Assembly (NCBI GenBank): GCA_043818055.1
Contig: JBDRGF010000033.1
Coordinates: 32,001-96,000 of the forward strand
Source of the DNA: Pseudomonadota bacterium
GTDB taxonomy: Bacteria; UBA10199; 2-02-FULL-44-16; JBDRGF01
DNA length: 64,000 nt
Direction of reading: 5' to 3'
Below the pieces are notes generated by a model. That model saw nothing but the letters and a program-made list of their open reading frames with translations. It made no database searches and was not told the origin of the DNA. Position 1 is the stretch's first letter. The number at the start of each line of letters is the position of its first letter. Below are positions 18,026-53,012 of the stretch, piece by piece. A program made the position numbers and the translations under genes.

Positions 18026-18041
18026 AAAACCCTCGTTTCAA

Positions 18042-20145: not shown

Positions 20146-20155
20146 AGTAATTCCA

Positions 20156-21262: not shown

Positions 21263-21319
21263 AATTACTTACCCCAAATATTATTTTGTAACAGATAAAT
21301 CAATCAACCTTAAACACTC

Positions 21320-21335
21320 GCAAAAATTATGCCAA
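21320..21335 (-). promoter_or_regulatory. Sigma54 (-24/-12) promoter of the radical SAM operon
   Basis: TTGGCATAATTTTTGC has exact GG-N10-GC spacing, ~58 bp upstream of the ATG at 21262. Confidence 0.75.
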
Positions 21336-21407
21336 AATGGTAAAAAACATAACCATTTGAAATTATACTTGTTTTTTTTAAAAATCGTTAATAACAATTA
21401 ATTATTT

Positions 21408-21445
21408 GTCCAAAAAATCGGACTCGAGAGTCCAGAAAATCAGAC
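21408..21445. promoter_or_regulatory. Putative tandem upstream activator sites for a sigma54 enhancer-binding protein
   Basis: GTCCaaaaaatcGGAC and GTCCagaaaatcAGAC, 22 bp apart; IHF-like TTTCAAATGGTTA (minus strand, ~21350-21362) lies between them and the promoter. Confidence 0.5.
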
Positions 21446-21499
21446 ACTCCAGATCGAACGGTTATATCAAAGGATGGATTTTAATAAAAAATTAAACAA

Positions 21500-23008: not shown

Positions 23009-23145
23009 AGTGTTTTAATAACTATAATGAAGTCCATGTGATTGTCTATATCAAAAATTTGTTTTTTATATGGTGGCTTGACAGAAAATAGAGAAACTGT
23101 CACTAATAAGCGCATATCCTTATTGGAAAGGGTTTTTAAAAAACT

Positions 23146-24324: not shown

Positions 24325-24370
24325 TTACAAGCTATAACTTTTTTTTAAATTTAGCTAAGTTGAATATATC

Positions 24371-25639: not shown

Positions 25640-25682
25640 GAATGCAATTTTGCGATAATCTTTTAGAAAGAGTGAATTTTGT

Positions 25683-26879
25683 ATGAAAGAAAATATACTA
25701 ATTTTGAATAACGCCAGATATGAGCACTACTATAAGAATAAAAAACCAATTATTGACTATAATCGTTACAACGTTTTTTTTATAACAAAAAAAGAATACG
25801 CTGCTGAAATTCCAGATAATGATTACTCAGAACTTCACTCCATCAATATGAGTGACAGCGACGCTGTATTCGAATTAGCAAGAAATATTCATTTAAGGTA
25901 TTTTATCAATCGTGTCATTGCACTATCCGAAAGTAACATTTTGGATGCAGCACGAATTAGAGAATTTTGTGGGTGTAAAGGAATGCCATTTAACCAAGTG
26001 CTAATATTAAGAGATAAATGTTTAATGAAAGAATACCTCAGTGGTAAAGGAATTAACGTCCCTGCATTTAAAAAATTATACTCAACTCAGAATGCCATAG
26101 AGTTTTACCAATTATATGGTAGAGTTGTGATCAAACCTGCGTTAGGAATGGGATCAAAGAATACCTACATTATTGATACAGAGACTAAGTTCAACTTAGC
26201 GTTAAAATGTATTAATAATAGCATTCTTGATTACGAAATTGAGGAATTTGTTGATGGAGATATGTATCATTGCGATTCCATCATAGTGGATGGACATGTT
26301 AAACTATGTAGCGTTAGTAAATATCTTGATTCCACATGCGGTTATTTAGAGAGTCAACCACTTGCATCAGTTATGGAAGATGACGAAAACATCTGCTCTA
26401 GGTTACAGACTTTTAACAGCATGATTCTTAAAGCTTTCGGCATCAAAAATGATGTTACACATCTTGAGGTCTTCTATAAGGATTCTAATATCGTATTTTG
26501 TGAAATTGCAATAAGAACAGGAGGGGGAGGAATTATTGATTCAGTTGAGCAGAAATATTCAATCAATCTCATGGAAACCCATCTCAAACTCCAACTTTCA
26601 CAATGTGAAAAATTACAACTATGTAGCAGAGATCTTTACAGTGGATTTGTTATGTTTTATGCGAAACCAGGGATAGTAGTCAATATTACACCGGCCGATA
26701 AATTTAATCAGGAATGGATATCTAAATTTAAAGTCTACATCAAAAAAGGCGATCGAGTCATTTTACCAAAATATAATGGAAAACCAGCCGCCATAGTAAT
26801 CATCGTTGGAAAGACGAAAGACGATTTGATCAATAAAGTTGAATGGGTAAAAAGCAATTTCAGAATTAGCTACATTTAA
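25683..26879 (+). CDS. ATP-grasp ligase (L-amino-acid-ligase-like)
   Basis: RDKCLMK, VIKPALGMGS, IEEFVDG, HLEVF, FCEIAIRTGG. Confidence 0.85.
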   Translation: MKENILILNNARYEHYYKNKKPIIDYNRYNVFFITKKEYAAEIPDNDYSELHSINMSDSDAVFELARNIHLRYFINRVIALSESNILDAARIREFCGCKGMPFNQVLILRDKCLMKEYLSGKGINVPAFKKLYSTQNAIEFYQLYGRVVIKPALGMGSKNTYIIDTETKFNLALKCINNSILDYEIEEFVDGDMYHCDSIIVDGHVKLCSVSKYLDSTCGYLESQPLASVMEDDENICSRLQTFNSMILKAFGIKNDVTHLEVFYKDSNIVFCEIAIRTGGGGIIDSVEQKYSINLMETHLKLQLSQCEKLQLCSRDLYSGFVMFYAKPGIVVNITPADKFNQEWISKFKVYIKKGDRVILPKYNGKPAAIVIIVGKTKDDLINKVEWVKSNFRISYI

Positions 26880-27017: not shown

Positions 27018-28058
27018 TCACCCCACCAGTTCAATTCTTTCACCCTCTGTCAACTCACCAAATGAATTTATCGCATGTTCAGCAAGCCCCATTTTTCTAG
27101 CAACTCTGATATATTCTTCCACATTTGAAGGATCGACTGCGACAAGCAATCCACCCGATGTCTGCGGGTCGGCTAAAATCTTTTGATTCTCCCCTGTGAG
27201 ACCTTCGACATGATGGCCATAGCTCCTAACATTTCGAAATGTTCCTCCGGGACAGCACTCTTTGTCGAGATAGTATTCAACTTCTTTAAGCAGAGGGACA
27301 TCATCAACTCTAATTACAGCTTTGAGCTTCGATCCTTGAGCCATTTCAAGGAGATGTCCCAAGAGTCCAAACCCGGTGACGTCGGTCATCGCGTGCACAC
27401 ATGATAGCTTTCCAAAGGCCTCACCTGCGCGATTCAATGCTGTCATTATCTCTACCGCTTTTCCTTCATCTGTCGGCTTTAGCACTCCGTGTTTTTGGGC
27501 GCTCGTGAGGATGCCTATACCAAGCGGCTTTGTGAGAAATAAAAGGTCCCCTGCCTTTGCGCCGTCATTTCTTTTTATATGGGCCTTTTTTATGGTGCCG
27601 TTCACGGCCAATCCAAATATCGGCTCAGGTGAATCAATGCTGTGTCCGCCGGCCAGCGGAATGTTCGCATCTTTGCAGACTTCGCTAGCCCCCCTCATCA
27701 CCTCCCTTGCAACATCGGGTGATAATTTATCTATCGGCCAGCCCAGGATCGATATCGCAAGGATCGGAGTCCCTCCCATCGCATACACGTCGCTGATCGA
27801 ATTCGTTGCAGCTACCCTGCCGAAATCGTATGGATCATCGACGATCGGCATGAAGAAATCGGTCGTACTGATCAGCGCCTCTCCGTTCCCCAGATCGACA
27901 ACGGCGGCATCATCCTTGCTCTCGTTGCCAACGATGAGATTTGGGAATTTCGTGTTGTTTTTCCCCTCTAAGATCTTCTCCAGCACATCAGGCGCGATCT
28001 TGCACCCGCACCCTGCCCCGTGGCTGTATTGTGTCAGTCGAACATTTTTTTTATCCAT
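27018..28058 (-). CDS. selD: Selenide, water dikinase (Cys-type)
   Basis: [51 protein letters not shown]. Confidence 0.97.
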
Positions 28059-28169
28059 AACGTTTTCTACCTTTTTTCTCAAGACTGTTCGAAAATGCTG
28101 AGGGAGTTCACCCGCCTCAACTTCCCCGTTATGCAACGGGAGAAGCCTTGTCAAGAGAAGTGATTCTGA

Positions 28170-33109: not shown

Positions 33110-34828
33110 ATGATATCCAAAGAAATCGAAAATAAAATCAACGAATTAGCAAAAAAATATCCAAAAAAAGAGTCGGCGCTCATGCCGGCACTCGATCTCG
33201 TACAACGCAGCAATAAAAACCTCCTATCACATGAGGATATCAAAGAGACCGCACGCGTTGTCGGGGTGACTGAAAGCAAAGCTTTTGGCGTCGCAACTTA
33301 TTACACGATGTATAACACGGAAAAAGTCGGGAAATTTAATCTACAGATCGACACGAATATCCCGGGTTTCTTGACCGGTGCGAACGAAATACTCGAACAC
33401 CTCAGGAAAAAACTCTCAATCGATGCCGGCGAGACCACAAAGGATGGTATGTTCACCCTCTCAATCGTTGAAGATCTTGGTTCATGCGGCACCTGCCCTG
33501 TGATGCAGGTCAACGACACATATTACGAAAATCTGACAATCGAAAAGGTGGACAAGATCATAGATGAGCTGAAAAAGGACAAAACGCCTGAACCGGACAC
33601 GACAGCGAACTGGGGATCCGAGTGCAAGATACTCCTAAAAAACATGGGAGAGAAAAATTCGACGAGCATCGAAACATACAAGAATAGCGGTGGCTACACA
33701 GCCCTTGCCAAAGCCCGCAAGATGAAACCTGCCGACATCGTTCAGGTGGTGAAGGAATCGATGATCAGAGGTCGCGGCGGTGCAGGTTTCGCGGCCGGGG
33801 TCAAGTGGGGATTTTTACCCAAGGATGATTCCCGTCCAATCTACCTTGTCTGCAATGCCGATGAAGGGGAGCCGGGAACATTCAAGGATCGCCAGATCAT
33901 GCAATATGATCCACACCTTCTGATAGAGGGAATCGCGATCACCGCCTACGCTATAGGATCGAAAAAGGCATTCATCTATATAAGAGGTGAGTTCCGCTGG
34001 ATCGCCGACATACTCGAAACGGCCATTGAACGTGCTAAGGCAGAGGGGATGCTCGGGGATCTGGACATCGTAGTTCATAAAGGGGCAGGATCATACGTCT
34101 GCGGCGAAGAGACAGCGCTGATCGAATCTATAGAGGGCAAGCGCGGCAATCCGAGAAACAAGCCGCCATTTCCTGCGAATATCGGCCTCTACGATTGTCC
34201 CACTATCGTAAATAATGTCGAGACGCTTGCGTGCATTCCATACATCATCGAAAATGGCGCAGAGGCTTTTAAAAAGATCGGAAATGCAAAGAACTCAGGG
34301 CCGAAGCTCTACGGCGTAAGCGGCCATGTAGAAAAACCTGGTGTATATGAATATCCGCTTGGAACACCGCTTGAAAAGATTCTCAAAGCAGCAGGTGGCG
34401 TGAAGGGAAAATTAAAAGCTGTAATAGTCGGAGGATTATCGGTCCCGATATTGCGCGCCGATGAGGTCAAGGATCTCAAGATGGATTTTGACGACTGCTT
34501 AGCGCATGGCACTATGCTCGGTTCCGGCGGTATCATGGTGATCAACGATACCATATCGATTCCTGAGTTAGCGCTGAGAACTATCAAATTCTACGCTCAC
34601 GAATCGTGTGGCCAGTGCGTCCCGTGTCGCGATGGCAGTTCTGTGATAAAGAATATATTGAAAAGGCTGATTGCGGGCCAAGCAAAAAAAGAGGAGATCG
34701 ACCAGATTTTATCCATGTGTAAGACGATAAAGGGTCTCACACTCTGCCCAACCGGCGACGCGTTCGCAATGCCTATAGAGGCTATGATTGAGAAATTTAG
34801 AGAAGAGTTTGAGGGATTAATAAAATAA
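33110..34828 (+). CDS. Fused NuoE-like/NuoF-like NAD(H)-binding diaphorase subunit of formate dehydrogenase
   Basis: SALMPAL..Q / VATYYTMY (NuoE-like), then RGRGGAGF, CNADEGEPGTFKDR, YVCGEETAL, ESCGQCVPCR (NuoF). Confidence 0.9.
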   Translation: MISKEIENKINELAKKYPKKESALMPALDLVQRSNKNLLSHEDIKETARVVGVTESKAFGVATYYTMYNTEKVGKFNLQIDTNIPGFLTGANEILEHLRKKLSIDAGETTKDGMFTLSIVEDLGSCGTCPVMQVNDTYYENLTIEKVDKIIDELKKDKTPEPDTTANWGSECKILLKNMGEKNSTSIETYKNSGGYTALAKARKMKPADIVQVVKESMIRGRGGAGFAAGVKWGFLPKDDSRPIYLVCNADEGEPGTFKDRQIMQYDPHLLIEGIAITAYAIGSKKAFIYIRGEFRWIADILETAIERAKAEGMLGDLDIVVHKGAGSYVCGEETALIESIEGKRGNPRNKPPFPANIGLYDCPTIVNNVETLACIPYIIENGAEAFKKIGNAKNSGPKLYGVSGHVEKPGVYEYPLGTPLEKILKAAGGVKGKLKAVIVGGLSVPILRADEVKDLKMDFDDCLAHGTMLGSGGIMVINDTISIPELALRTIKFYAHESCGQCVPCRDGSSVIKNILKRLIAGQAKKEEIDQILSMCKTIKGLTLCPTGDAFAMPIEAMIEKFREEFEGLIK

Positions 34829-34921
34829 ATGCTGTGCGCTATGGGCTTTGCGCCATGCGTTTTAAAAGCGCATAGCGCACGACACAAAACGCATAGCAGT
34901 TCATTTTTAAGGAGGAAATAC

Positions 34922-37660
34922 ATGAGTAGCAAAATCAACATCGATGGAAGGAGTTGCAACTTTGAGGGGGCGAAAACCATCCTTGAGGTCGCACGCGACA
35001 ATCACATCTACATCCCGAGCTTGTGCTACCACAAAAAGACAGGGCCGGCTAGCATGTGTCGCGTCTGCGTTGTAGAGGTGGATGGCATGAGAGGGCTTCA
35101 GACTGCTTGTTCGGTGGAGGCCAAAGATGGCATGACGGTCAAAACCGACACACCAAAGGTAATAGAAGCGAGAAAACTCGTAGTAAATCTACTCCTCGTA
35201 AATGGCCATCACAACTGTCTATCCTGTGAACAGAATGGCGAATGTGAGCTTCAGGAGGCTGCATATAAGCTTGGAATAGAAGAGCCGTCATTCGTTGTCG
35301 ACGAGGGGACAAAGACAAAGGATGAGTCGAGTGAGATGATCATCCGCGACGGCAACAGATGCATACAGTGTGGCCGTTGCATCAAGGGATGCAATACAAC
35401 TGTCGTCAACGAAGTGCTCGATTTCGGCTACCGCGCCGATTCGACAAAGGTGATCTGCGATGATGACCTCGCGATGGGAGATTCTTCCTGTGTCCAGTGC
35501 GGCGAGTGTTCGCAGCTCTGTCCGGTTGGCGCGATCACAGACAAGAAAGCCCATGGAAAGGGTCGTCCCTGGGAATTAAAAAAGGTCGATACGGTTTGCA
35601 CATATTGTGGAGTTGGCTGTCAGCTGACGCTGCATGTCGATGAATGGAAAAATGAGATCGTGAAAGTAACAGGTGTCGATGGGGCACCTCCAAATGACGG
35701 CATGCTCTGCGTGAAGGGGCGTTACGGTTATGAGTTTGTAAACAGCCCAGAAAGGCTTACCACCCCGTTGATCAGAAACAGCAAAGGTGAGTTTGAAAAT
35801 GCGACTTGGGAAGAGGCTATAAACTTCATCGCAAAAAAGTTAAATGATATTAAGCAAAAACATGGTTCGAACAGCATAACGGGCCTTGCTTCCGCCAAGG
35901 TGACAAATGAAGAGAACTTCCTATTTCAGAAGTTCATGAGAAAGGAGGTGGGCACAAATAACGTTGATCATTGTGCCCGGCTCTGACACTCCGCCACGGT
36001 GGCCGGTCTGGCTACCTCACTCGGTTCAGGCGCTATGACAAACGACATCGCAGGTATCAAGAATGCCGATGTCATTCTAATAACGGGTTCTGATACATCA
36101 GCAGCTCATCCAGTTATCGCTGCCCGCATCAAGCAGGCTGTGCGATTTGGAAAAACAAAGCTCATCGTCATCGATCCGAAAGAGATCAAGATGGCCGAAT
36201 ACGCAACCATCTATGCAAGGCAGAGATGCGGCACGGATGTCGCAGTATTAAACGGTATCATGCATGTGATGATCAAGAACGGTTGGTACGACAAGGCATA
36301 CGTCGAAGAGCGATGCGAAGGATTTGAAGAGCTGAAAAAAGAGGTCGAGAACTATCCTCCGGAAAAGGTTGAAAAGATATCCGGCGTCCCAGCAAAGCAG
36401 ATAGAAGAGATAGCAGAACTTTTTGGCAAGGCCGAAACCGCGAGCCTCTTCTATGCGATGGGAATCACACAGCATACGACCGGCGTCGATAACGTCTGGT
36501 CAACTGCCAATCTGCAGATGCTCTGCGGCAACCTTGGAAAGGATGGCGGAGGCGTCAATCCACTCAGAGGCCAATCAAACGTACAGGGTGCTTGCGATAT
36601 GGGTGGGCTTCCGAATGTCTTTCCGGGATATCAAAAAGTTATCGATGAAAATGCAGTAGCAAAATTTGAAAAGGCCTGGAACTGCAAGCTTTCGAATAAA
36701 GTCGGACTAACTGTGACAGAGATGCTTGGTGGCGCTCACGATGGAAAGGTGAAGGCGATCTATTGCATGGGAGAAAATCCGATGCTCTCAGATCCTGATC
36801 TCACGCACGCAAAAGAGGCGCTCGAAAAATTAGAGCTGCTAGTCGTTCAGGATCTCTTCATTACAGAGACTGCAGAACTTGCTCATGTAATCTTGCCGGC
36901 TGCAACTTTTGCCGAAAAAGAGGGGCATTACACTAATACAGAGCGAAGGGTGCAGCGTTTGAGAAAAGCCGTCAACTCTCCTGGAGAAACAAAACAGGAT
37001 TGGATGATCATACAGGATATCGCAAACGCGATGGGTGGCGAATGGAAGTATCAATCGGTAAAGGATATAACCGATGAAGTTTGTCAGCTCACTCCACAAT
37101 ATGGTGGCATCACATGGGAGAGAACGGAGAAGATCAGTTTGCAATGGCCATGCCCGACAACGGAACATCCGGGCACACCATACCTTCATAAAGGGAAATT
37201 TGCACGCGGCAAGGGACTTATGAAGGCTATACCATTCAAAGAGCCGGCTGAGCTGCCTGATGAAGAGTATCCACTTGTTATGACGACAGGCCGAGTACTG
37301 GAACATTTTCACACGGGAACCATGACAAGAAAGACTCAAGGGCTAAATAACTTAGCAGGCCCGATGGTCATGATCTCTGTCGAAGATGCCGAAAGCCTGG
37401 GAATTAAAAACAGCGAACTCGTGAAAGTCACCACGCGTCGTGGCGAAATTCACACACCTGCTTTTGTAACAAGAAGAATCGGCAAGGGAACGATTTACAT
37501 CCCGTTCCATTATAAGGAAGCTGCGGCTAATTTGTTGACCAATCCGGTCGTAGATCCGGTGGCCAAGATTCCAGAATACAAGGCCTGTTCTGCACGCGTC
37601 GAAAAATTAAATGGAGAAATAGCTGATTCACCTTCGTGTAGAATCGGAAGGGTTAAATAG
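34922..37660 (+). CDS. fdhA: Selenocysteine-containing formate dehydrogenase alpha subunit (NuoG-like Fe-S N-terminus); TGA 35984-35986 read as Sec
   Basis: ORF-track pieces 34829-35986 and 35999-37660 share a frame and join as DHCARL-U-HSATVAGL. Fe-S motifs CYH..CRVC, CIQCGRC, CVQCGEC, CTYCGVGC; PLRGQSNVQG; RBS aggagg before ATG 34922. Confidence 0.95.
35998..36016 (+). promoter_or_regulatory. Bacterial SECIS hairpin
   Basis: GGTGGCC-GGTCT-GGCTACC stem-loop starting 11 nt after the in-frame TGA. Confidence 0.8.
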
Positions 37661-37664
37661 GTCA

Positions 37665-38108
37665 ATGGTTAAAATTGATATCGACACCATATTTCTCAAG
37701 GCAATAGAAAAGGAAGAAAAATCTTCAAAATTCTATTCCGACTTATCGGAAAAATCGAAAGATGAATCTTTAAAGATTTTTTTTAAGGAGCTCTCTCAGG
37801 ATGAGCTGTCACATAAAAATTATTTGGAAAATCTCAGAAAAAATCCTCGCCTGATAACCAGGATAAATGAGAACTACGACGACATAATTTCAATTATTGA
37901 TTCTTCCCCTCCTGAATTTAATCCAAATATGAATATCATGGATGCTTTTAAACTCGCCATAAATAAAGAGGAAGAAGCTGCTCTCCTTTATAATTCTTTG
38001 GTCAGCCGCGTCGATGATCCTGAAGCCGTTAAAATTATCAAATACCTGGCGAATATGGAGATGGGACACAGAAGTAAACTTGAAGGCATACTCCTCACGT
38101 TTAAATAA
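37665..38108 (+). CDS. Rubrerythrin-like ferritin-fold diiron protein
   Basis: AIEKE..FY...DELSH and AINKE..LY...MEMGH (ExxH pairs). Confidence 0.8.
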   Translation: MVKIDIDTIFLKAIEKEEKSSKFYSDLSEKSKDESLKIFFKELSQDELSHKNYLENLRKNPRLITRINENYDDIISIIDSSPPEFNPNMNIMDAFKLAINKEEEAALLYNSLVSRVDDPEAVKIIKYLANMEMGHRSKLEGILLTFK

Positions 38109-38129
38109 CAATCCCAAAGGAGAATTTAT

Positions 38130-38588
38130 ATGGATAAGATTGAAATGGAAAAAATATTTTCGACAGCAATCGACAGAGAGATTGAGGCCTACGAATTTTA
38201 TAAGGATGTCGCAACCAGGATTGATAACAAGGAAGTAAAAACGGTCTTTGAGCAGCTCGCGAAGGAGGAGATGGGACACAAGGATATGCTTGAATCACTA
38301 AAAAATGATCCGACAAAGATGATGAAGATCACCCCTCCTGCTGCAGATTACAAGGTCGCTGAAGCCACAGAGTTGCCCCCCTTGAGCACCGACATGAAGC
38401 CAGCGGATGCCATAGCGCTTGCCATGAAGAAGGAAGAGGCGGCTGTTGAATTCTATCGCGGGATGGCTGCCGGAGCAGAAGAGAGTAGTATCAAAGATAT
38501 GTTCGAAAATTTAGCCAACATGGAACTCGGTCACAAGCATCGACTGGAGAATGTCTTCGTTGAGATTGGGTATCCGGAGGTGTTTTAA
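38130..38588 (+). CDS. Rubrerythrin-like ferritin-fold diiron protein
   Basis: AIDREIEAYEFY...EEMGH and AMKKE...MELGH. Confidence 0.85.
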   Translation: MDKIEMEKIFSTAIDREIEAYEFYKDVATRIDNKEVKTVFEQLAKEEMGHKDMLESLKNDPTKMMKITPPAADYKVAEATELPPLSTDMKPADAIALAMKKEEAAVEFYRGMAAGAEESSIKDMFENLANMELGHKHRLENVFVEIGYPEVF

Positions 38589-38626: not shown

Positions 38627-40210
38627 CTAATTTTTATCTTCCTTTGCTTTATTTAGTATCCTCCTATCCCCCACCCTCATCGTTGTACCTTCGGAATCGT
38701 AGCGGGATAGAAGTAAGAGACAAAATTTTCTGTTTGCGCCGATAAGATCTCTAAACTCGGCTACTGTCATACCAGAGGGTGTTGATTTTAAAGCCTCAAC
38801 AAGTTTTTTTCTGAATTCATCCACAATGGAAGCATGTATATAATTTCCTTCTATGGAATAAACCCTGCCTTTTTTTACAAGGGAGTTGAGTACGAATTTT
38901 AATCTTCCTTTATCAATTCCCTTCCCCTTGGATATCTCTATGAGTTCAGATTCAAGAGGCGTTTTGGTTCCACAATCGGCAAGCAGTTTCTCTACGAAAT
39001 TCAATTCATCAGTTGACGCCTCATCTATTTTCCTTAGCAGCCTTTCCACAGCTGGCGGTGAGACAACCGATTCTACAGCCTCTCCTCTTGCTACTCTATT
39101 AATTCTCTCAATCAGCGCCTTTGTCCTTCGCCTGTGATGTAGAGGATTTGAATCGATAATTTCACCGGCACCTATGGTCATATCACCGGATGAATTCCGC
39201 ATTATAAATTTATCCCCTTTTGCGATCGCACATGGCGTGGGAAGATGTATTTGAGCGATAGCACGCTCATCTCCCTTGAGTCTGTTCCTGTCTATCAGAT
39301 GCACCTTCGCCATCGATTCGAATGTTCCAAGGTGAAAGGTGACATTGCTCCATAGGCTCAGGGCTTTGGATGATCGAAATAATTTTATCTTTGCATCGAC
39401 CATTTGGGTGGTTTCAAGTGCCCTGTTTGAAATAAGCTGTCCTCGTCTGAACCCATCGAGTTTGAATCCGGGAATATTGATCGACGCACGATCTCCCGCA
39501 ACCACTTCGTCAACCTGAGTACGATCCCTCTCAATCCTTCTAATCCTGTGACTCTTTCTATCTCCAGGAATTACGAAGATCTCCTGATTTGACTCAAGCC
39601 TCCCACTCAGAACTGAGCCATTAAAAACCGCTCCAAAGCCCTGGACATAAAATGCCCTATCTATAAACATCCTGAAATCCCCTCCTTGAGGGCGTTCTGG
39701 AATTGATTTTATAATTTCAGATATGGTTGATTTGAGCTCGTCGATACCAAATCCGGATGTTGATGACACCTGAATGATCGGCGCGTTCTTTAGAAAAGTC
39801 TCATCAGTTAATTTTTTGATATCATTTTTCGCAATTGAGATCATTTCATCATCGGCCAGATCGCATTTGGTGAGCACAACTATCCCGGATTTTATTGAGA
39901 GGGCATCCATGATTTCGATGTGCTCCCTTGTTTGAGGCATGACTCCTTCATTTGCTGCAACGACCAATAATCCAAAATCGATCCCGCTCGCTCCAGCTAC
40001 CATGTTATGAATAAAATCCTTGTGGCCGGGGACATCGATGATGCCGACCTTATCATCTCCGAGTGTTAGATGGGTAAATCCCAGGTTGATCGTAATTCCG
40101 CGTTTTTTTTCTTCAGGATGGGTATCACAGTCAAAACCTGTAAGGGCTTTTACCAGAGCTGTTTTACCGTGATCGACATGACCGGCTGTGCCGAGTATTA
40201 TATGTTTCAT
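38627..40210 (-). CDS. selB: Selenocysteine-specific elongation factor (short form)
   Basis: GTAGHVDHGKT, RGITINLGF, DVPGH, C-terminal RDLIGANRKF...RVGDRR winged helix. Confidence 0.93.
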   Translation of the reverse strand: MKHIILGTAGHVDHGKTALVKALTGFDCDTHPEEKKRGITINLGFTHLTLGDDKVGIIDVPGHKDFIHNMVAGASGIDFGLLVVAANEGVMPQTREHIEIMDALSIKSGIVVLTKCDLADDEMISIAKNDIKKLTDETFLKNAPIIQVSSTSGFGIDELKSTISEIIKSIPERPQGGDFRMFIDRAFYVQGFGAVFNGSVLSGRLESNQEIFVIPGDRKSHRIRRIERDRTQVDEVVAGDRASINIPGFKLDGFRRGQLISNRALETTQMVDAKIKLFRSSKALSLWSNVTFHLGTFESMAKVHLIDRNRLKGDERAIAQIHLPTPCAIAKGDKFIMRNSSGDMTIGAGEIIDSNPLHHRRRTKALIERINRVARGEAVESVVSPPAVERLLRKIDEASTDELNFVEKLLADCGTKTPLESELIEISKGKGIDKGRLKFVLNSLVKKGRVYSIEGNYIHASIVDEFRKKLVEALKSTPSGMTVAEFRDLIGANRKFCLLLLSRYDSEGTTMRVGDRRILNKAKEDKN

Positions 40211-41718: not shown

Positions 41719-41810
41719 CAGAGAGGGCAGGAATCGAACCTGCCACAGACGGTTTTATCCGGCCGCTACTGGCTTTGAAGGCCAGCTAAAACACCAGTTT
41801 ATTCCTCTCT
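41719..41810 (-). tRNA. selC: tRNA-Sec (anticodon UCA)
   Basis: CTGGC-CTTCAAA-GCCAG anticodon arm, long variable arm, GCAGG-TTCGATT-CCTGC T-arm, G discriminator; directly upstream of selA; CCA not encoded. Confidence 0.93.
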
Positions 41811-44563: not shown

Positions 44564-45151
44564 ATGAAGATAGATTTTGAAGCATTCATACTTGCCGGGG
44601 GAAAATCTAGCCGATTCGGCTCTAACAAGGCGCTCGTCAAACTCAATGAGGAAACCCTGCTTGAAATCATACTCGGAAAGCTAAGGCAAATTTTTCCAAA
44701 GGTTACAATTGTTGTTAAAGATTCCGCACAGGTCACAACACTAAAAATTGACCATATCGTGGACAACCATCAATACCCGGGTGCCCTTGCCGGGATTGCG
44801 ACTGCCCTTTCCACAGCTAAAGCCCAGAAAATTTTTATTGTCTCATGCGACCAGCCACTGATCGATCACAAGGTGATCGATAAAATTCTTCAAAACGCGG
44901 GAGATGAGGAATTGTTGCTCCCGGTTGTCGATGGATTCAAACAACCGCTGCAAGCCCTATATGATAAAAAAGCATATCTTAAGTTGCCCGGCGACTTGAA
45001 TGCTGCGCTTCCTGATTTTACCTGTAAGTTGATCACGAGGCAGATGCTCCGAGGTGAGTTTTGCGGGATCCCAAATTTTGAGAAGTCCTTTGTCAACGTC
45101 AACACACAAAGCGACTTTGAACGCGTCAAAAGAATATGGAGAAACCTATGA
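44564..45151 (+). CDS. mobA: Molybdenum cofactor guanylyltransferase
   Basis: ILAGGKSSRFGSNKA, VSCDQP, QPLQALY, NVNT. Confidence 0.88.
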   Translation: MKIDFEAFILAGGKSSRFGSNKALVKLNEETLLEIILGKLRQIFPKVTIVVKDSAQVTTLKIDHIVDNHQYPGALAGIATALSTAKAQKIFIVSCDQPLIDHKVIDKILQNAGDEELLLPVVDGFKQPLQALYDKKAYLKLPGDLNAALPDFTCKLITRQMLRGEFCGIPNFEKSFVNVNTQSDFERVKRIWRNL

Positions 45152-46026
45152 AAAAAATATTAAAACTAACCCTATGTATTGCTATGATTTTTAGCAGCTC
45201 AATTGCGTTTGCCAAAGAAAAAGCAATAATCCTGGCAACAACTACAAGCACTGAAAACTCAGGACTTCTGGACTACATTCATCCCGATTTCACTCAAAAA
45301 ACAGGGATTAAGGTCAAAGTCGTTGCTAAGGGGACAGGCGCCGCACTCAAGATGGCGATGGATGGGAATGCCGATATTGTAATGGCGCACGCAAAGAATC
45401 GTGAGTTAAAATTCGTAGAAGAGGGATATGGAATAGACAGACATGAATTCATGCATAACGATTTTATCATAGTCGGACCTGCGAGCGATCCGGCAGACAT
45501 TTATGGAATGACAGATGCGGCATCAGCGTTGTCTAAAATTGCAAAATTTAAGAAGACCCCCTTTATCTCGCGGGGTGATAACTCCGGCACTCATATCAAA
45601 GAGCAACAGCTCTGGAAGAATTCGACAGCTGATCTAATAGAAGATAATCAAGATGTAATGGCAGAAGGTCAAATAAAGAACGTAAAATCTATTAGGCCAA
45701 AAGGGAGATGGTATCTCTCCGTCGGCCAGGGCATGGCAAAGACATTTGGAATCGCCTATGAAAAGAATGCCTATACTATAATAGATAGAGGCACCTTTAT
45801 CGCGCTATCCGATAAATATAAGCTCAAAATCATGGTGGAGGGAGATCCAAAGCTCTTCAATCAATATTCGATCATGGCCGTCAATCCAAAGAAATATCCG
45901 CACGTGAAATATAAATACTCAAAAAAATATATAGACTGGATCCTCTCTCCTTCGACTCTGAAGATGATTGCGAACTACAAGATCAAGGGAGAGCAGCTCT
46001 TTTTTCCTGAAAAGATGCCCGATTGA
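45148..46026 (+). CDS. tupA: Tungstate ABC transporter substrate-binding protein
   Basis: Signal peptide, LATTTSTENSGLL (TTTS motif), FISRGDNSGTH. Confidence 0.9.
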   Translation: MKKILKLTLCIAMIFSSSIAFAKEKAIILATTTSTENSGLLDYIHPDFTQKTGIKVKVVAKGTGAALKMAMDGNADIVMAHAKNRELKFVEEGYGIDRHEFMHNDFIIVGPASDPADIYGMTDAASALSKIAKFKKTPFISRGDNSGTHIKEQQLWKNSTADLIEDNQDVMAEGQIKNVKSIRPKGRWYLSVGQGMAKTFGIAYEKNAYTIIDRGTFIALSDKYKLKIMVEGDPKLFNQYSIMAVNPKKYPHVKYKYSKKYIDWILSPSTLKMIANYKIKGEQLFFPEKMPD

Positions 46027-46057
46027 TTAAACTGCATCTTCAAAAATTTTTCTTTAA

Positions 46058-46190
46058 ATATAGCTGCCGCAAAACGCACTCTCTATTTTGTAGGGGCGGC
46101 CCCCTGTGGCCGCCCGCGGGTAAGCACGGGGGCTTCCCCCTACATCAATAAATTATACAAAACGGACAATTTGTTTTGCGGTAGCTATAT
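46058..46190. mobile_element. MITE-like element (18-bp IR, 1 mismatch) enclosing a GTAG-type REP doublet
   Basis: atatagctgccgcaaaac / gttttgcggtagctatat; internal gtaggggcggcccc...cccctac at 46090-46143. Confidence 0.65.
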
Positions 46191-46217
46191 CTGATCAAAC
46201 TATGATAAAAGGACGAA

Positions 46218-46910
46218 ATGTTTTTGGATTCTATACAACAAGCCCTGCTCAACATCACAAACCTCAACCCTGAACTACTAAACATCGTTTTGAGGTCGCT
46301 CCTGCTCGCTACAACATCGACTTTTGTTGCGGCGATCGTCGGCATATCGCTTGGAATATCGATCGCCAGATCCAATTTTTCAGGAAAGAGACTTATCATT
46401 TCCCTCATCAACACAGGAATGGCATTTCCAACAGTTGTAGTGGGCATTGTCCTCTACTGCATCCTCTCCAAAAACGGCCCCCTTGGAATTTATTCCCTCC
46501 TCTATACAAAAATAGCAATAATTCTGGGGCAGATAGTTTTAGGGCTGCCCATCGTCATAGCGATAACGATCAGCTCCATCTCCCATCTCGACAAAAATCT
46601 CTTTAAACTTATCGACATCTTCAATGCCCGGGGAAGCCTTAAGCTTTTTACTATACTAAAAGAGGCCAGATTTGGAATCATTACTGCAATCGTCGCCTGC
46701 TTCGGAAGGGTGATAGCAGAGGTTGGAGTATCGATGATACTGGGCGGCAATATCAAAGAATACACCCGCACGATGACGACAGCGATCGCGCTCGAACACG
46801 ACAAGGGGGAACTATCATTGGCCCTGGCACTTGGAATTATCCTCCTTTGCATATCGCTTGGCGTCAACATCCTCTTTCAACACTATAAGCCCCATGAAAG
46901 GGAAGCATGA
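46218..46910 (+). CDS. tupB: Tungstate ABC transporter permease
   Basis: PTVVVG, FGRVIAEVG, GGNIKEYTRTMTTAIAL. Confidence 0.9.
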   Translation: MFLDSIQQALLNITNLNPELLNIVLRSLLLATTSTFVAAIVGISLGISIARSNFSGKRLIISLINTGMAFPTVVVGIVLYCILSKNGPLGIYSLLYTKIAIILGQIVLGLPIVIAITISSISHLDKNLFKLIDIFNARGSLKLFTILKEARFGIITAIVACFGRVIAEVGVSMILGGNIKEYTRTMTTAIALEHDKGELSLALALGIILLCISLGVNILFQHYKPHEREA

Positions 46911-47905
46911 TCGAGATAAACGGACTGACAATTTCAAAGGGATCAAAAAAGATACTCGACATCGATCACTTAAAACTCGAATCCGGGAAGGTCACAGCGA
47001 TATTGGGACCCAACGGCTCCGGTAAAACAACGCTCCTCGAGACTATAGCCCTCCTCAACAGGGATGAGCTATCAAAAATCAAATTTGACGGAAGCGATAT
47101 CACACTTGAAAATCTTCCCCAGTTAAAAAGATCTATTGCGCTCCTGTTGCAAAGGCCGACGCTATTTGAATCTCCGGTCATCGACAACGTCTGCTTCGGC
47201 CTGATCGCCAAGGGCTTTTCCAAAAGAGAGGCTACTCCCCGGGCGATTGAGATGTTAAAAAGACTTGGCATCGATCATATATCAAAAAGAACCCCCACCT
47301 CGCTATCAGGCGGGGAACGGCAGAGGGTCTGCCTAGCCGCTCTTCTCGTTTTAAAACCAAAATGGTTGCTATTGGATGAACCATTTTCAAACATCGATAC
47401 AGAAAATCGCGAGATGTTCAAAAGGCTGATCACAGAGCTATCCAAAGTAGGCGTCGGGGTGATATACTCGAGCCATAGAGTTCCAGAGGCGGTTCTCCTC
47501 TCCGACCATATCTATCACCTTTATGAAGGCAGGCTTTCCGAAGAGGTGATGGAGAATGTATTCACTGTCGAGATCCTCAAAGAGGGGGAAGAGAGATTCT
47601 TCGAGCTTGCCAGAAAACAAAGGATCTACATAGCAGATGATCTTGAGGGAATCTGTCGAATCTCGATCGATCCCAAAAATCTGATACTCTCCCTGAAGCC
47701 ATTCAAATCGAGCGCTAGAAATATGCTGATCGGAAAGGTGATATCGATATCCTCTCATCACGATCTCGTTCGGGTCGAAATGGATGCAGGAATCCCTCTC
47801 CATGCGATCATAACGCACCAATCGTTGGAGGAATTGAAGCTCATCCCAGAGAAGAACATCATAGTCTCATTCAAGGCGACTGCTATTAAGGTGATCAAGA
47901 TTTGA
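46907..47905 (+). CDS. tupC: Tungstate ABC transporter ATPase with C-terminal TOBE domain
   Basis: GPNGSGKT, LSGGERQR, LLDEP, SSARN...FKATA. Confidence 0.88.
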   Translation: MIEINGLTISKGSKKILDIDHLKLESGKVTAILGPNGSGKTTLLETIALLNRDELSKIKFDGSDITLENLPQLKRSIALLLQRPTLFESPVIDNVCFGLIAKGFSKREATPRAIEMLKRLGIDHISKRTPTSLSGGERQRVCLAALLVLKPKWLLLDEPFSNIDTENREMFKRLITELSKVGVGVIYSSHRVPEAVLLSDHIYHLYEGRLSEEVMENVFTVEILKEGEERFFELARKQRIYIADDLEGICRISIDPKNLILSLKPFKSSARNMLIGKVISISSHHDLVRVEMDAGIPLHAIITHQSLEELKLIPEKNIIVSFKATAIKVIKI

Positions 47906-47961
47906 TTTAGACATAAGTCATATCATGTGCTATCATTCGCAAAAATAAAAAGGGGGGATAT

Positions 47962-48423
47962 ATGAATTTTAAAAGGATCTTAATCGCAACGGTCGTAGTA
48001 ACAATCGTAAACGCACTCTTTGGCTGGCTCACATGCGGCTGGCTCTTCAACTGGGTATATCAGCTGGAGCCGGTGAACGTCTGGATCGCTGAGGCTGAGA
48101 TGACCCCGACTTTCATGCTCTGGGCAAATTTGGGAAGCTTAGTCATCGCCTTTTTGTTCGTACTGATCTTCGCCCGCCTTCAGGATTGCCTTCCAGGTAA
48201 ATGCCGATGCTGTAGGGGTATATCGTATGGCGTGATCGTGTGGCTGCTGGGCGTGCTTCCAGGCATGTTCTCGATCTACATGTTCATGAACATAAATAAA
48301 ACCGTGCCGATCTACTTGGCGCTGAGCGGACTGGTCAGAATGTTGATCTTGGGTGGAATAACAGGTCTAATCGTCAACAAGAAGGTAGAAGGTGAAAGCT
48401 GCTGCTGCGGTTCTGGTAAATAA
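47962..48423 (+). CDS. Four-TM membrane protein of unknown function
   Basis: Four hydrophobic helices, G-rich RBS. Confidence 0.7.
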   Translation: MNFKRILIATVVVTIVNALFGWLTCGWLFNWVYQLEPVNVWIAEAEMTPTFMLWANLGSLVIAFLFVLIFARLQDCLPGKCRCCRGISYGVIVWLLGVLPGMFSIYMFMNINKTVPIYLALSGLVRMLILGGITGLIVNKKVEGESCCCGSGK

Positions 48424-48444
48424 CAAAACAATCAATTGATTTGC

Positions 48445-48474
48445 AAAAAGGCCGCTATCAATAGCGGCCTTTTT
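48445..48474. terminator. Bidirectional intrinsic terminator
   Basis: aaaaaggccgctat-ca-atagcggccttttt between convergent genes. Confidence 0.8.
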
Positions 48475-48491
48475 AGTACAAAAGATATCTT

Positions 48492-48983
48492 CTATTTTTT
48501 TAAATCTTTAGAATCAATTTTAATTTCTAAATCCTTAGGATCGATATTAATCTTCACTTCCGGGCAATCAAATTCCAACATTTCGATATGTTCACCGCTT
48601 CTGATCAATGCGTCCGTAACCTTCTGCGAAAATTTCTCCATATCTTTCAACATTTTTATGATCGCACGATCCTCTAACGTCGGTTTTGAAGTTGGCTTGG
48701 ATGTCGGGGCAGGTCTGCTTGTCGGCTTTGACGTTGATTGTTTTGTTACCTGCTCTGGGGTTTTTAGATATCTTCCAGGTTTAAAACGAGGCTCAAACTG
48801 ACTTAAGTTAAACGAATCCATTTCGATATGTTCCGATACCATCGGCTTAGACTTTTCCAAAGACTCTAAGTACCGAGAAATCTGATCGTCATTCAACGAT
48901 ACAGGTTTAGAGATCGGCTTTCTCTTTTTCACCGGCTGTGATGCTGGTGCTTTTACCTTCACTGGTTTTGCTTTAATCTTCAT
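48492..48983 (-). CDS. Hypothetical K/P/S/T-rich protein
   Basis: RBS aaggag before MKIKAK; internal (P)TSK repeats; preceded by a sigma28-like motif. Confidence 0.55.
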   Translation of the reverse strand: MKIKAKPVKVKAPASQPVKKRKPISKPVSLNDDQISRYLESLEKSKPMVSEHIEMDSFNLSQFEPRFKPGRYLKTPEQVTKQSTSKPTSRPAPTSKPTSKPTLEDRAIIKMLKDMEKFSQKVTDALIRSGEHIEMLEFDCPEVKINIDPKDLEIKIDSKDLKK

Positions 48984-49101
48984 AAAATTCTCCTTTTTAA
49001 AATTTCCCCCAGAATTGTTATCTATACTACCATTATCGGGTGAAAGTACAAAAATGTTGCTAGCATTATGTAAAAAAAATAAAGGCAATAATATCAATGC
49101 G

Positions 49102-50319
49102 TTACATAACCAAAAATTGCACCTGATCGCCCGATTTAAACCCATCTCTCTTTTCAGGGTAGAACACAAGAGCATTGCCTCTAGATAGAAGGCTTAAAGA
49201 CTGGGAGCTTTGGTTATCGAAGATTTCGAGGTTATATCGATCATCTTCAAGCTTATATCTTCCCATCAAAAATGAGGTTCTGTCTGACTTATATTTTAGA
49301 TCGGAAGTCAATATTCCCTCATAAAATTTCGGATAGCAATCCGCTGTATTCATTCCCGAGAGCCTGTCCACAACTCCCTTAACAACAACCTCACACAACA
49401 CAGCGACGGAGACCGGATTGCCGGGGAGGCCGAGAAAAACCTGATTATTTTTTTTCGCTAAGAGCAGAGGCCTGCCGGGCTTTATTTTGGCGCGCCAGAA
49501 GATGATCTTCCAACCGAGCTCTTCAAGGCATGGCCTAATATAGTCCCTCTCCCCCATCGAAACACCGCCGGTAGAAATTATCAAACCGTTCCCTAACAAC
49601 TCTGCTTTTTGAATTGTTTCTTTGAGCTTTTCCTTCGTATCACCAGCGTTGCCCATATATTTTACATCAATCCCCCACTCCCTGAATTTAAGATCGAGAA
49701 ATACTCTGTTACTATTGATAATCGCATCGCCTCTAGGATTCTCATCCACAATTTCGTCACCAGTTGTAAAAAAAACGACCTGGGGTTTTGGATAAACACT
49801 TAGATGCGTTATTCCTTGTGTATATAAGTTTGCGATGTCGGCGGGTTGAAGCCTTTTGTTTTTTGGAATTAGCGCGTCGCCCTTTTTTGTATCGTTGTCG
49901 AATTTACGAATATTCGCCCACGTTTTTGGCATGAAGTCGAAGTTAACTATGTTGCCATCACCCTTTGAGTTTTCAACAGGTATGACGGCGTTGCAGTTGG
50001 GAGGAATTCGGGCGCCGGTCATGATTTTCACGCAGCAGCCTGGAGGTATTTCGCCGTTGTAATTTTGTCCGGCAAACGACTCGTCGCTGACTCTGAACGC
50101 CTGTCGTTCAATTGGTGCATCGCTCTTGATGTCATGTGTGTTGATCGCCCAGCCATCCATGGCCGAGTTATCAAATCCCGGTACATCACGAAGGGTTTTG
50201 ATTTCAGCGCTCGTGACTAAACCGGCAGCTTCACTAACGGGAATCGATATTGGATTTCCCGGTTGAGCAGCATCGATGCATTCGTTTAGAACTTCTTTGT
50301 AGGTGATGTTTTGTTTCAT
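49102..50319 (-). CDS. moeA: Molybdopterin molybdenum/tungsten transferase
   Basis: FDNSAMDGWA, IMTGA, TGDE, TGGVSMGERD, KPGRP, LPGNPVS. Confidence 0.93.
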   Translation of the reverse strand: MKQNITYKEVLNECIDAAQPGNPISIPVSEAAGLVTSAEIKTLRDVPGFDNSAMDGWAINTHDIKSDAPIERQAFRVSDESFAGQNYNGEIPPGCCVKIMTGARIPPNCNAVIPVENSKGDGNIVNFDFMPKTWANIRKFDNDTKKGDALIPKNKRLQPADIANLYTQGITHLSVYPKPQVVFFTTGDEIVDENPRGDAIINSNRVFLDLKFREWGIDVKYMGNAGDTKEKLKETIQKAELLGNGLIISTGGVSMGERDYIRPCLEELGWKIIFWRAKIKPGRPLLLAKKNNQVFLGLPGNPVSVAVLCEVVVKGVVDRLSGMNTADCYPKFYEGILTSDLKYKSDRTSFLMGRYKLEDDRYNLEIFDNQSSQSLSLLSRGNALVFYPEKRDGFKSGDQVQFLVM

Positions 50320-50332
50320 AATTTCTTCTGTG

Positions 50333-50441
50333 GCTATTCGAAAATAGTATTAATGTAGGGGTCGGCCCCTGTGCCGACCCTTAAAAACGGGCAACCACAG
50401 GGGGTTGCCCCTACAAAAAACAAAACATATTTTCGAACAGC
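50333..50441. mobile_element. MITE-like element (14-bp IR, 1 mismatch) enclosing a GTAG-type REP doublet
   Basis: gctattcgaaaata / tattttcgaacagc; internal gtaggggtcggcccc...gcccctac at 50355-50414. Confidence 0.6.
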
Positions 50442-50450
50442 TTGAAGCGG

Positions 50451-50945
50451 TTACACCGTCTCATCTTTACAATCGCTCACCTCTCCCTTGAGCACTTTGA
50501 TCGCGTGGGGGAGGAGCGGTTTTAAAATTTCGAACGACTCAATGACGCTCTTTGGCTTCCCCGGCAGGTTTATTACGAGCGTCTTGCCGATCGTGCCCGC
50601 AACACCGCGCGTGATCGGGGCGTAGGGTGTGATTTTTAGGCTCTCCATCATAAGATATGTGATGATGTTGTCTGCCCGACGTTCCAAAAGGGAAAGGGTC
50701 ACCTCCGGCGTCCTGTCGCTTGGCGCAAATCCAGTACCACCACTAGTCAAAAGCAGATCGCACTCTCCCACCAGCCCTAAAATCCCTTCATTGATCCGCC
50801 TTTTTTCGTCCGGAACAACTTTAGTAGCAGAGAGGATAAAGACCTCATCCATTTCGATATGTTCTTCAAATAAAGGGATCGTTTCATCGGGGCGCGATCC
50901 GGTGAATGCCCTGTCGCTCACTATGAGAAGTCCAACTTTAATCAT
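50451..50945 (-). CDS. mog: Molybdopterin adenylyltransferase (MogA/MoaB family)
   Basis: VSDR, VPDE, TSGGTGFAPSDRTPE, NLPGKP. Confidence 0.88.
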   Translation of the reverse strand: MIKVGLLIVSDRAFTGSRPDETIPLFEEHIEMDEVFILSATKVVPDEKRRINEGILGLVGECDLLLTSGGTGFAPSDRTPEVTLSLLERRADNIITYLMMESLKITPYAPITRGVAGTIGKTLVINLPGKPKSVIESFEILKPLLPHAIKVLKGEVSDCKDETV

Positions 50946-50961
50946 AATATTTCCTCTAAAA

Positions 50962-51166
50962 TGTCATCCCTGCGAACAGACTGTGTCATAATTCAAATTT
51001 TACATATAATGTCATTCTGAGCGAAGCGAAGAATCTTGTGATTTCGGATACTTAAGATCCTTCACTTTGTTCAGGATGACACCAAAAACCAATTATGACA
51101 CAGTCTGGAAGGCAGGGATCCAGTCTTATGTCTATTATATGGATTCCCGCCTTCGCGGGAATGACA
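50962..51166. mobile_element. Nested repeat: REP interrupted by a 131-bp MITE (17-bp perfect IR, GAA target duplication) that itself contains a REP
   Basis: gcGAA|cagactgtgtcataatt...aattatgacacagtctg|GAAggcagggatcc. Confidence 0.8.
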
Positions 51167-51587
51167 ACAGGGGCACACCCTCTTTCACAACTCCACCCGT
51201 CACCACCTTTGCAAATACACCCTCTATCGGCATCACACAGGTGCCGACCGTTTTTGCGATGTGGCATGGATGATGGCATTCTTTGCCGATCTGGGTGATC
51301 TCAAGTTCGACCACATCACCTAATTTCAAACGTGTGCCGACGGGTAAGGTGTAAAGGGAGATGCCCTCTGTGATAACATTTTCGCCAAAGGCCCCAGCTG
51401 CAACCGTAATCCCCTTCTCAACAACTTTTTTTATGCTCTCCGAAGCGATGAGGCTCACCTGCCTCTCACTTCCCGCGTGTGCATCACCTTCAATGCCAAA
51501 GTCCTTAATGAACGTCACCTCATTGACAGGGGACTTCGTCGTTCCTTTTTTCAAACTCGTGCAGAGATTAACGACGGTAGCTGCCAC
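51135..51587 (-). CDS. MOSC-domain protein
   Basis: GIEGDAHAG..RQVSL, GAFGEN, TQIGKECH..C, CVMP.EGVFAKV. Confidence 0.88.
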   Translation of the reverse strand: MAATVVNLCTSLKKGTTKSPVNEVTFIKDFGIEGDAHAGSERQVSLIASESIKKVVEKGITVAAGAFGENVITEGISLYTLPVGTRLKLGDVVELEITQIGKECHHPCHIAKTVGTCVMPIEGVFAKVVTGGVVKEGVPLLSFPRRRESI

Positions 51588-52047
51588 TTGCACCTCCCTC
51601 TTTGCTGATGAGGCGCACCGGCCCAATCTCAATCCCTCTATCGAGTGCCTTGCACATATCGTATATGGTGAGCGCGGCGACAGAAACTCCTGTCAGCGCC
51701 TCCATCTCGACGCCTGTCTTGCCAGTTAGTTTAGATGTGCATGTGATTCGAATCTGGTCGACATCCTCGAGCACATCAAAGTTCAAGTCGATGTGTTCGA
51801 TCGACAGCGGATGACAAAGGGGGATCAGCTCCGCTGTCTTTTTCACCGCCTGAATGCCTGCGATTTTCGCGGTAGAGAGCACATCGCCCTTTTTCACATT
51901 GTTATCGACTATCGCTTTGAGCGTCTCTTTCGAGAGCTTCACAAAACCCTCTGCGGTAGCTATCCTGTAAGTATTCTGTTTATCCTGAACATCGACCATG
52001 GAGGCTTTCCCCTTCGCGTCGATATGAGTGAGACTTTCTTTCATCAT
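51568..52047 (-). CDS. moaC: Cyclic pyranopterin monophosphate synthase
   Basis: LTHID..G.ASMVDV, KKGDVL, LIPLCHP, TGVEMEAL, YDMCKA. Confidence 0.96.
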   Translation of the reverse strand: MMKESLTHIDAKGKASMVDVQDKQNTYRIATAEGFVKLSKETLKAIVDNNVKKGDVLSTAKIAGIQAVKKTAELIPLCHPLSIEHIDLNFDVLEDVDQIRITCTSKLTGKTGVEMEALTGVSVAALTIYDMCKALDRGIEIGPVRLISKEGGASGSYRR

Positions 52048-53012
52048 CCACCTACCTCTTTCATCGGGTGACATATTCTTTTCGGTTCTTCCAGCTTATC
52101 CCTTATCCTCTGAAGCTGATCACGCTTTAACGACACGATACTCTCAACACCTTGAGAGAGAAGCCTCTTATTTCCTATCATCTTTTTAAGATCTACGACT
52201 TCGCTGGATCGCAGACATGTCTTTGCGACCCCCTTTGATGTGAGGCGCAGCTTCGCACAATCGTCGCAGAATTTGTCGGAGTTTGGTGAAATAAAACCGA
52301 TCGACCCCAAGGCCTCCGGAATACGAAAGACCTTCACATGCGTCCCATCGTTGGATCTGATGGATGACATAAGCTCACCGAATTCACTTATCAGAATTTT
52401 TTTAATCTCATCGCTTGAGATAAAGCGTCTGCTCCACTCTTCGTCTGATTCGCCCTGTTGCATAAGCTCGATGAAACGAAGGTTGATCTTGTGAGCAGTT
52501 GTGAGTTTTGATAGCTTCACTATCTCAGATTCGTTGACCCCTTTTATAATGACCGTATTCAGCTTGATCGGCGAAAAACCAATTTTAAGCGCCTCTTCAA
52601 CCGAACCCCAAACATCTCCTAAGAGATCCTGTCCTGAGAGCTCTCGATAGATCTTCTCACACAGCGCATCGAGGCTGAACGTGATGCGCTTCAAACCCGC
52701 GGCGTATAGATCTTTGAGATAAGGCCTTGCAAGCGTCCCATTTGTGGTGATCGATATATCCGTGAGGGGTAATTTTTTAAGCTGACCTATAAAATCTACG
52801 AGCCCCTCTCTGCAGAATGGCTCACCGCCGGTGATCTTGACGCGATGAATGCCGTGCTTTGAAAATTCTCCAACGATCTCGTAAAGTTCATCCCACGAGA
52901 GATAGTCGTCACTAATCTGTTTCTCACGTTTATTAGGTGAGCAATAGAGACAGTTGAGATTGCAATAATCGGTCACGGATATCCGCAATGTGTCTATTTT
53001 AAGAGCTTTCAT
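52044..53012 (-). CDS. moaA: GTP 3',8-cyclase
   Basis: LRISVTDYCNLNCLYC, TGGEP, RFIELM, FCDDC..LRL...CL, C-terminal GG. Confidence 0.93.
   Translation of the reverse strand: MKALKIDTLRISVTDYCNLNCLYCSPNKREKQISDDYLSWDELYEIVGEFSKHGIHRVKITGGEPFCREGLVDFIGQLKKLPLTDISITTNGTLARPYLKDLYAAGLKRITFSLDALCEKIYRELSGQDLLGDVWGSVEEALKIGFSPIKLNTVIIKGVNESEIVKLSKLTTAHKINLRFIELMQQGESDEEWSRRFISSDEIKKILISEFGELMSSIRSNDGTHVKVFRIPEALGSIGFISPNSDKFCDDCAKLRLTSKGVAKTCLRSSEVVDLKKMIGNKRLLSQGVESIVSLKRDQLQRIRDKLEEPKRICHPMKEVGG

Follow-up and report, generated by a model that had tools for sequence, protein, structure and literature searches.

The canonical tRNA-Sec of Escherichia coli has an 8/5 fold, a 2-nt linker and an encoded CCA end. 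A form with 7 + 5 pairs and one linker nucleotide missing, the Cloacimonetes type (Mukai et al. 2016), is described in Santesmasses et al. 2017, where 47 further bacterial 12-bp tRNA-Sec genes, most of them bulged, are given, and where most other 7/5 cases, those of Gammaproteobacteria included, show a bulge or an additional base in the linker (PMC5330540). In Aeromonas salmonicida, which has been used with allo-tRNA and is compared here by description only, a 12-bp branch is recognised by SelA too and a Cys codon is recoded, whereas the tRNA treated here reads UGA (PMC10778597). The fifth and sixth D-stem pairs have been reported to help SelA (PMC7609411).

Canonical SelB contains four winged-helix domains, WH1 to WH4 (PMC4605307; PMC8124441). 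In the structure described by Itoh (2015), WH3-4 lie on the SECIS, varying SECIS distances are accommodated by the WH2-WH3 hinge, WH1 is held firmly on D3 and, in a docking model, WH1-2 touch 16S helix 16 (PMC4605307). The contact that domain 4 makes with the SECIS is described as persisting through all steps (Rodnina review, PMC5311926). WH3-4 of E. coli SelB are given as residues 488-614 (bioRxiv 10.1101/2025.02.04.636165).

The window analysed here, which is the whole 64,000-nucleotide stretch of DNA, contains the genes selC, selA and selB, all in one direction (Table 1), with a 4-nt overlap between selB and the selA stop. The tRNA-Sec is read as 7/5 with a 1-nt linker and CCA not encoded, and the SelB has two winged-helix domains where the canonical protein has four. 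A first-pass annotation of this DNA had proposed a further SelA/SelB/tRNA system of the 12-bp type; this proposal is supported, as a 12-bp tRNA-Sec adjoins selA and selB. The loss of two SelB domains had escaped that annotation. The 7/5 Cloacimonetes-type tRNA-Sec, SelA and the SelB without WH1-2 are likely to insert Sec at the single UGA of a formate dehydrogenase (FDH).

Table 1. Coordinates of the selenocysteine genes, the FDH genes and their parts in the window
Feature	Position	Strand	Details
selD, selenophosphate synthetase	27018..28154	minus	Cys form, no internal stop; TIGR00476 436 bits
NuoE-NuoF-like fusion	33110..34828	plus	likely NAD-linked FDH partner subunit (putative role)
FDH alpha subunit	34829..37660	plus	single in-frame TGA (35984-35986) in the catalytic Sec/Cys site; 860.6 bits against TIGR01591 with read-through
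Predicted SECIS hairpin	35998..36016	plus	7-bp stem, 5-nt loop; starts 11 nt behind the TGA
selB, compact, 527 aa	38627..40210	minus	D1-D3, spacer helix, linker, WH3-WH4; TIGR00475 345 bits, cut-off 242; Pfam; alignments; model
Linker in place of WH1-WH2	39014..39088	minus	SelB residues ~375-399; pLDDT under 50 at 378-395
selA, selenocysteine synthase, 480 aa	40207..41649	minus	TIGR00474 539 bits, cut-off 268; starts 70 nt after G73
selC, tRNA-Sec(UCA), 7/5 fold	41719..41810	minus	A1 = 41810, G73 = 41719, anticodon 41778-41776
Acceptor 5' strand	41804..41810	minus	7/7 pairs with 41726-41720, A1-U72
1-nt linker A8 (41803) and D-arm	41787..41803	minus	4-nt loop
Long variable arm	41745..41766	minus	8 positions, one C.U mismatch, 6-nt loop
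T-stem, 5 bp	41743-41739 / 41731-41727	minus	read from the sequence

Structure of the compact SelB

Domains D1-D3 and WH3-4 of the window SelB align with those of Aquifex aeolicus SelB (4ZU9) and E. coli SelB (5LZB). Winged-helix domains 1 and 2 (~115 aa) are absent, a low-confidence linker of ~25 residues stands in their place, and the SECIS-binding domains 3 and 4 are kept. The alignment shows a single gap after SelB residue ~383, corresponding approximately to E. coli residues 369-491; as WH3-4 begin at residue 488 in the E. coli numbering, the lost part is WH1 + WH2. The gap region holds 14 residues in the window SelB versus 124-170 in the full-length homologues aligned. An AlphaFold2 model based on a 9-row alignment (mean pLDDT 79.4, pTM 0.64) contains D1-D3, a spacer helix at residues 364-374 and two winged-helix domains that follow a disordered linker. 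The invariant G-domain residues, the GTPase motifs and the WH4 residues, including the arginines, have been retained. An engineered E. coli SelB(1-487) has half of domain 4 removed, as has the window SelB, but it lacks WH3-4 and keeps WH1-2, which is the reverse of the present case (bioRxiv 10.1101/2025.02.04.636165). No description of a SelB without WH1-2 was found in the set of papers searched, and an earlier mention is possible.

A second compact SelB, P0122 (515 aa), was identified by a search with residues 300-527 of the window SelB. The gap recurs in P0122, where the linker sequence differs and 8 residues of WH3 are lost as well. The two proteins are 71% identical overall (N part 74%, C part 72%), are sisters at 100/100 when the gap columns are left out, and are separated by ~0.35 substitutions per site. 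Among the best 150 of 2416 matches in a 50%-cluster library, P0122 stands on top and is the only full-length protein that matches in one stretch, and no third compact SelB was present among the 36 matches of a search with P0122. The spacing between the flanking domains, D3 and WH3, was surveyed in 209 SelB proteins, 172 of which contain both domains; the two compact forms have values of 69 and 77, two unrelated proteins have 124, and 168 of the 172 have at least 170.

Two SelB proteins of 550 aa (P0173 and P0174, one labelled Gaiellaceae) show a separate, partial shortening of WH1-2 on another branch. Two others, P0344 (825 aa) and P0358 (819 aa), have a response-regulator receiver domain (PF00072) in addition.

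Formate dehydrogenase and proposed function of the compact SelB

The predicted SECIS of the FDH gene has G23/U24 in its loop (counted from the U of UGA), in the same register as E. coli fdhF; the SECIS distance is the same as in E. coli despite the ~115 residues gone from SelB. A crude scan for selenoproteins recognised only the FDH, and no second one was recognisable among the best 90 of 223 candidates. The TGA is kept in four of five relatives tested, while the genome G010 has TGC. The tRNA-Sec of G010 (L013 / L080, G010:C24) carries U33C and a C.A mismatch in the T-stem, neither of which is found in the window tRNA-Sec, and its selA and selB frames are open. Judged from these sequences, the Sec system of G010 is apparently in decay, and this single case suggests that the tRNA-Sec decays once the Sec codon of FDH is lost. 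In one metatranscriptome run (0.15 of words present), contigs closely matching parts of fdh, selB and selA were detected, whereas none of its RNA contigs lay over the tRNA-Sec gene at 90% likeness.

In the proposed pathway, RNase P would cut the tRNA before A1 and the CCA-adding enzyme would complete its 3' end, as in the known pathway. SerRS would charge it with serine via G73 and the long variable arm, and SelA would convert the Ser-tRNA using selenophosphate from SelD. The compact SelB would bind the SECIS with WH3-WH4 and would reach the A site via a flexible tether of ~25 residues, not via the WH1-WH2 spacer, so that the linker would act as a longer hinge. Fully extended, this linker could span ~85 Å (an estimate at 3.5 Å per residue), which is in principle enough to replace two small domains.

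The compact SelB is probably functional. Its frame, GTPase motifs and WH4 arginines are kept in two diverged organisms, which argues for selection. Against this stand the lost helix 16 contact, the loss of 8 residues from WH3 in P0122 and the weak D-stem; in particular, as WH1 is fixed on D3 and WH1-2 touch helix 16 in the docking model of the canonical protein, the loss of WH1-2 could impair delivery. The further reading, that this is a natural, working, minimal bacterial SelB in which a short flexible tether replaces WH1-2, the domains credited with positioning the factor on the 30S shoulder, and that a leash joining WH3-4 to the GTPase is all that SECIS-directed recoding requires, is evenly balanced between acceptance and doubt. 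A working compact SelB would show that WH1-2 are dispensable, and the protein makes it testable whether WH1-WH2 form a needed, rigid, ribosome-contacting spacer or a mere tether. A smaller SelB could also help to build Sec-insertion systems; if the proposal is true, the compact SelB, the 12-bp tRNA and its SelA make up an unusually small natural Sec-insertion kit.

The strongest alternative, itself rather unlikely, accepts the tRNA as described and takes the compact SelB to be crippled, the system being in decay or the Sec-tRNA being delivered weakly or by EF-Tu. The loss of ~115 aa from a region in which 168 of 172 homologues keep a spacing of at least 170 residues speaks for it, as does the crude scan with its single recognised selenoprotein. 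In a reporter, Sec was still inserted by E. coli SelB lacking WH3-4 (bioRxiv 10.1101/2025.02.04.636165), so that tethering by domain 4 is not required in every case. EF-Tu could be able to deliver a 12-bp tRNA whose acceptor resembles that of tRNA-Ser. A G.U wobble at 49-65 repels EF-Tu, and this T-stem pair is G-C in the window tRNA versus G.U in E. coli selC; however, G49-C65 is common to all 18 aligned tRNAs of the type, and most of their loci, where readable, have a four-domain SelB. The open frame, the GTPase motifs and WH3-4 have survived the divergence from P0122, the C part being no less conserved than the N part, and the FDH has retained its UGA and SECIS alongside a tRNA free of the G010 lesions. 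A functional compact SelB is preferred over a crippled one.

The tRNA-Sec gene and its acceptor register

The tRNA-Sec gene was called by both ARAGORN (anticodon tca) and Rfam RF01852 (58.5 bits, cut-off 47); for RF01852 it is the sole match above the cut-off among the 10 listed in the 2.93-Mb genome. The UCA anticodon, G73, the long variable arm and the 4-nt D-loop are all present as hallmarks of tRNA-Sec. The fold has z = -3.12, and equal stability was reached in one of 200 shuffles. The annotation's 7-bp acceptor (AGAGAGG/CCTCTCT with A1-U72), 5-bp T-stem and G discriminator are borne out by the pairs in Table 1. Its short, AU-rich D-stem had to be refined, as the D-arm has six positions, of which only four are Watson-Crick pairs and the other two U.U and A.A. 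The D-arm of the homologues has 4-6 pairs, and 10 of 18 aligned sequences form its outer pair. Six of the seven acceptor pairs are the same as in three tRNA-Ser genes found in the host genome. A promoter scan gave 11 sites versus 7.3 +/- 3.0 expected by chance.

From A1 to the anticodon loop there are 32 nt in E. coli selC and 30 in the window gene, and from the T-stem to G73 there are 8 and 7 nt, respectively; the window tRNA thus lacks an acceptor pair and a linker nucleotide. The 7/5 fold together with the missing linker nucleotide fits the definition of the Cloacimonetes type (PMC5330540), of which the window tRNA is very probably a further case, the type itself being already described. 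The likeness extends to the 7 + 5 helix without bulge, the linker one nucleotide short and G73; the window host differs in belonging to another lineage (its kin are labelled Deltaproteobacteria or Pseudomonadota bacterium), and its D-stem is weaker and its SelB compact. Three other classes were considered and rejected. The bulged or 7a-type 7/5 tRNA-Sec of Gammaproteobacteria, Clostridiales and Spirochaetes does not fit, since the window tRNA has no bulge or extra linker base and forms 7/7 pairs in a gap-free alignment. Canonical 8/5 tRNA-Sec needs 8 nt between the T-stem and G73, where the window has 7. The 8/4 tRNA-Sec, selC* tRNA-Cys and allo-tRNA (8/4 or 9/3; PMC5389517) are incompatible with a T-stem of 5 bp, and the eighth pair would be A.C.

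The 7/5 register (12 bp) of the tRNA-Sec is almost certain. Every one of the genome's 44 remaining tRNA genes has C74 directly after N73; this end is CAA in 23 of them, CCA is encoded in 10 and not encoded in 34, and a PF01743 nucleotidyltransferase is present in the host genome. G73 of the tRNA-Sec gene is followed by C-A-A (41718-41716), hence CCA is not encoded, and the gene matches the C74 pattern of the genome only if the G is position 73, which favours the 7/5 register. Among 20 distinct homologous genes (the window included), G73 is present in 19, the remaining one ending at a contig end, and four encode G-CCA in the same register.

Eighteen sequences (the 20-gene set minus three cut or truncated rows, plus L013) were aligned without gaps. 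Pairing is seen in 97.6% of the acceptor cells and in 98.9% of those of the 5-bp T-stem, and compensating columns with changes on both sides occur at two of the seven acceptor positions and at four in the D-stem. The pattern used for the metagenome search fixed the anticodon loop, the variable arm and the T 5' strand, so invariance in those parts is partly built in, and only the acceptor and the D-arm are free evidence. Throughout the type, the first pair of the acceptor is weak, with A1.C72 in L088, L098 and L100 and G1.U72 in three others. In L087:1950-2025 (minus strand), a tRNA copy without the acceptor 5' strand and the D-arm lies directly before selA and looks like an insertion or integration remnant in selC.

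It is improbable that the mature tRNA starts one base earlier, the case in which the first-pass annotation would have given up the 12-bp reading. Either U-1 would pair with G73 atop the seven pairs, as in tRNA-His, or a true 8/5 tRNA would be closed by a U.G pair and have C as its discriminator. U 41811 is indeed paired with G73 (41719) in both the MFE and the centroid fold, and a -1:73 pair is possible in 16 of the 18 sequences (U.G in 13, C-G in three). The 8/5 form, however, gives C73 followed by A-A, contrary to the C74 of all the other tRNA genes, and is impossible in the four homologues with G-CCA, and the base at -1 is A or G in two homologues. A pyrimidine at this position is ordinary in the genome, being found in 31 of the 44 other tRNA genes and in 9 of the 13 with G73, against 16 of 18 tRNA-Sec (Fisher p = 0.19). 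An extra U-1 would, in addition, leave the 12 nt from the start of the T-stem to G73 unchanged.

Relatives of the system and neighbouring genes

Of 93 genomes of the phylum, seven, which all belong to one order, contain this tRNA and selA, and eight contain selB; in G072 selB is matched, but no tRNA-Sec scores above the cut-off. A link between the 12-bp tRNA and the compact SelB was considered and rejected, as SelB is 638-694 aa long in all five relatives of the order that were measured (from the first possible start) and in the complete metagenome SelBs. A compact SelB is not a requirement of the 12-bp tRNA, since four domains are retained in relatives that have this tRNA. That selB is short through an error of assembly, or that WH1-WH2 are encoded by a separate gene, is extremely unlikely: the assembly is in 166 contigs and 93.6% complete, and no RNA contig spans the SelB junction, but P0122, from another source, shares the deletion with another linker sequence, which excludes an assembly error as its origin, and a WH1-2 profile run over six frames of the genome gave a best E of 0.21, against 1e-14 to 1e-43 for the SelB of relatives.

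Among the best 120 of 7998 SelA homologues, four carry a Cloacimonetes label, and the labels Aminicenantes, Chitinivibrionales, Margulisiibacteriota and Bacteroidota are also represented; these proteins match at 50-61%. In a tree of 50 rows, partly picked as top hits and placed by a quick search without bootstrap, the window SelA falls into a branch of 37 rows (SH-aLRT 99) with all 17 other SelA from loci with this tRNA and the four Cloacimonetes-labelled proteins; a SelA phylogeny had been suggested in the first-pass annotation. The SelA labelled Aminicenantes, Chitinivibrionales, Margulisiibacteriota and Bacteroidota belong to the same branch, and the SelA P0030, from a contig as long as that of P0122, is not a sister of the window SelA in this tree. 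A scan of the genome collection with SelA found only distant SelA (26-44%), which were used as the outgroup; tRNA-Sec was readable in 3 of 16 of their loci and was 8/5 with CCA in all three. Judged from its single cognate tRNA, the window SelA would accept a 12-bp branch. The tRNA adds a lineage to the known type and the locus provides one more SelA for 12-bp engineering.

Several other genes are present in the window. Two tandem ferritin/rubrerythrin-like genes (37665-38588, weak NCBIfam matches) lie between fdh and selB. A cluster at 44564-52074 fits a W- or Mo-dependent FDH; from their translations, its genes are presumably molybdopterin-cofactor-like, together with what we take to be a tungstate ABC transporter (45136-47905). 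Another cluster (13439-26879) has a biosynthetic look and, going by the translations, is assumed to encode two ATP-grasp-like and four radical-SAM-like proteins and a transporter. The translations also point to what are presumably a truncated tRNA-synthetase-like protein (14635-16620) and a CysRS-like gene (21500-23008).
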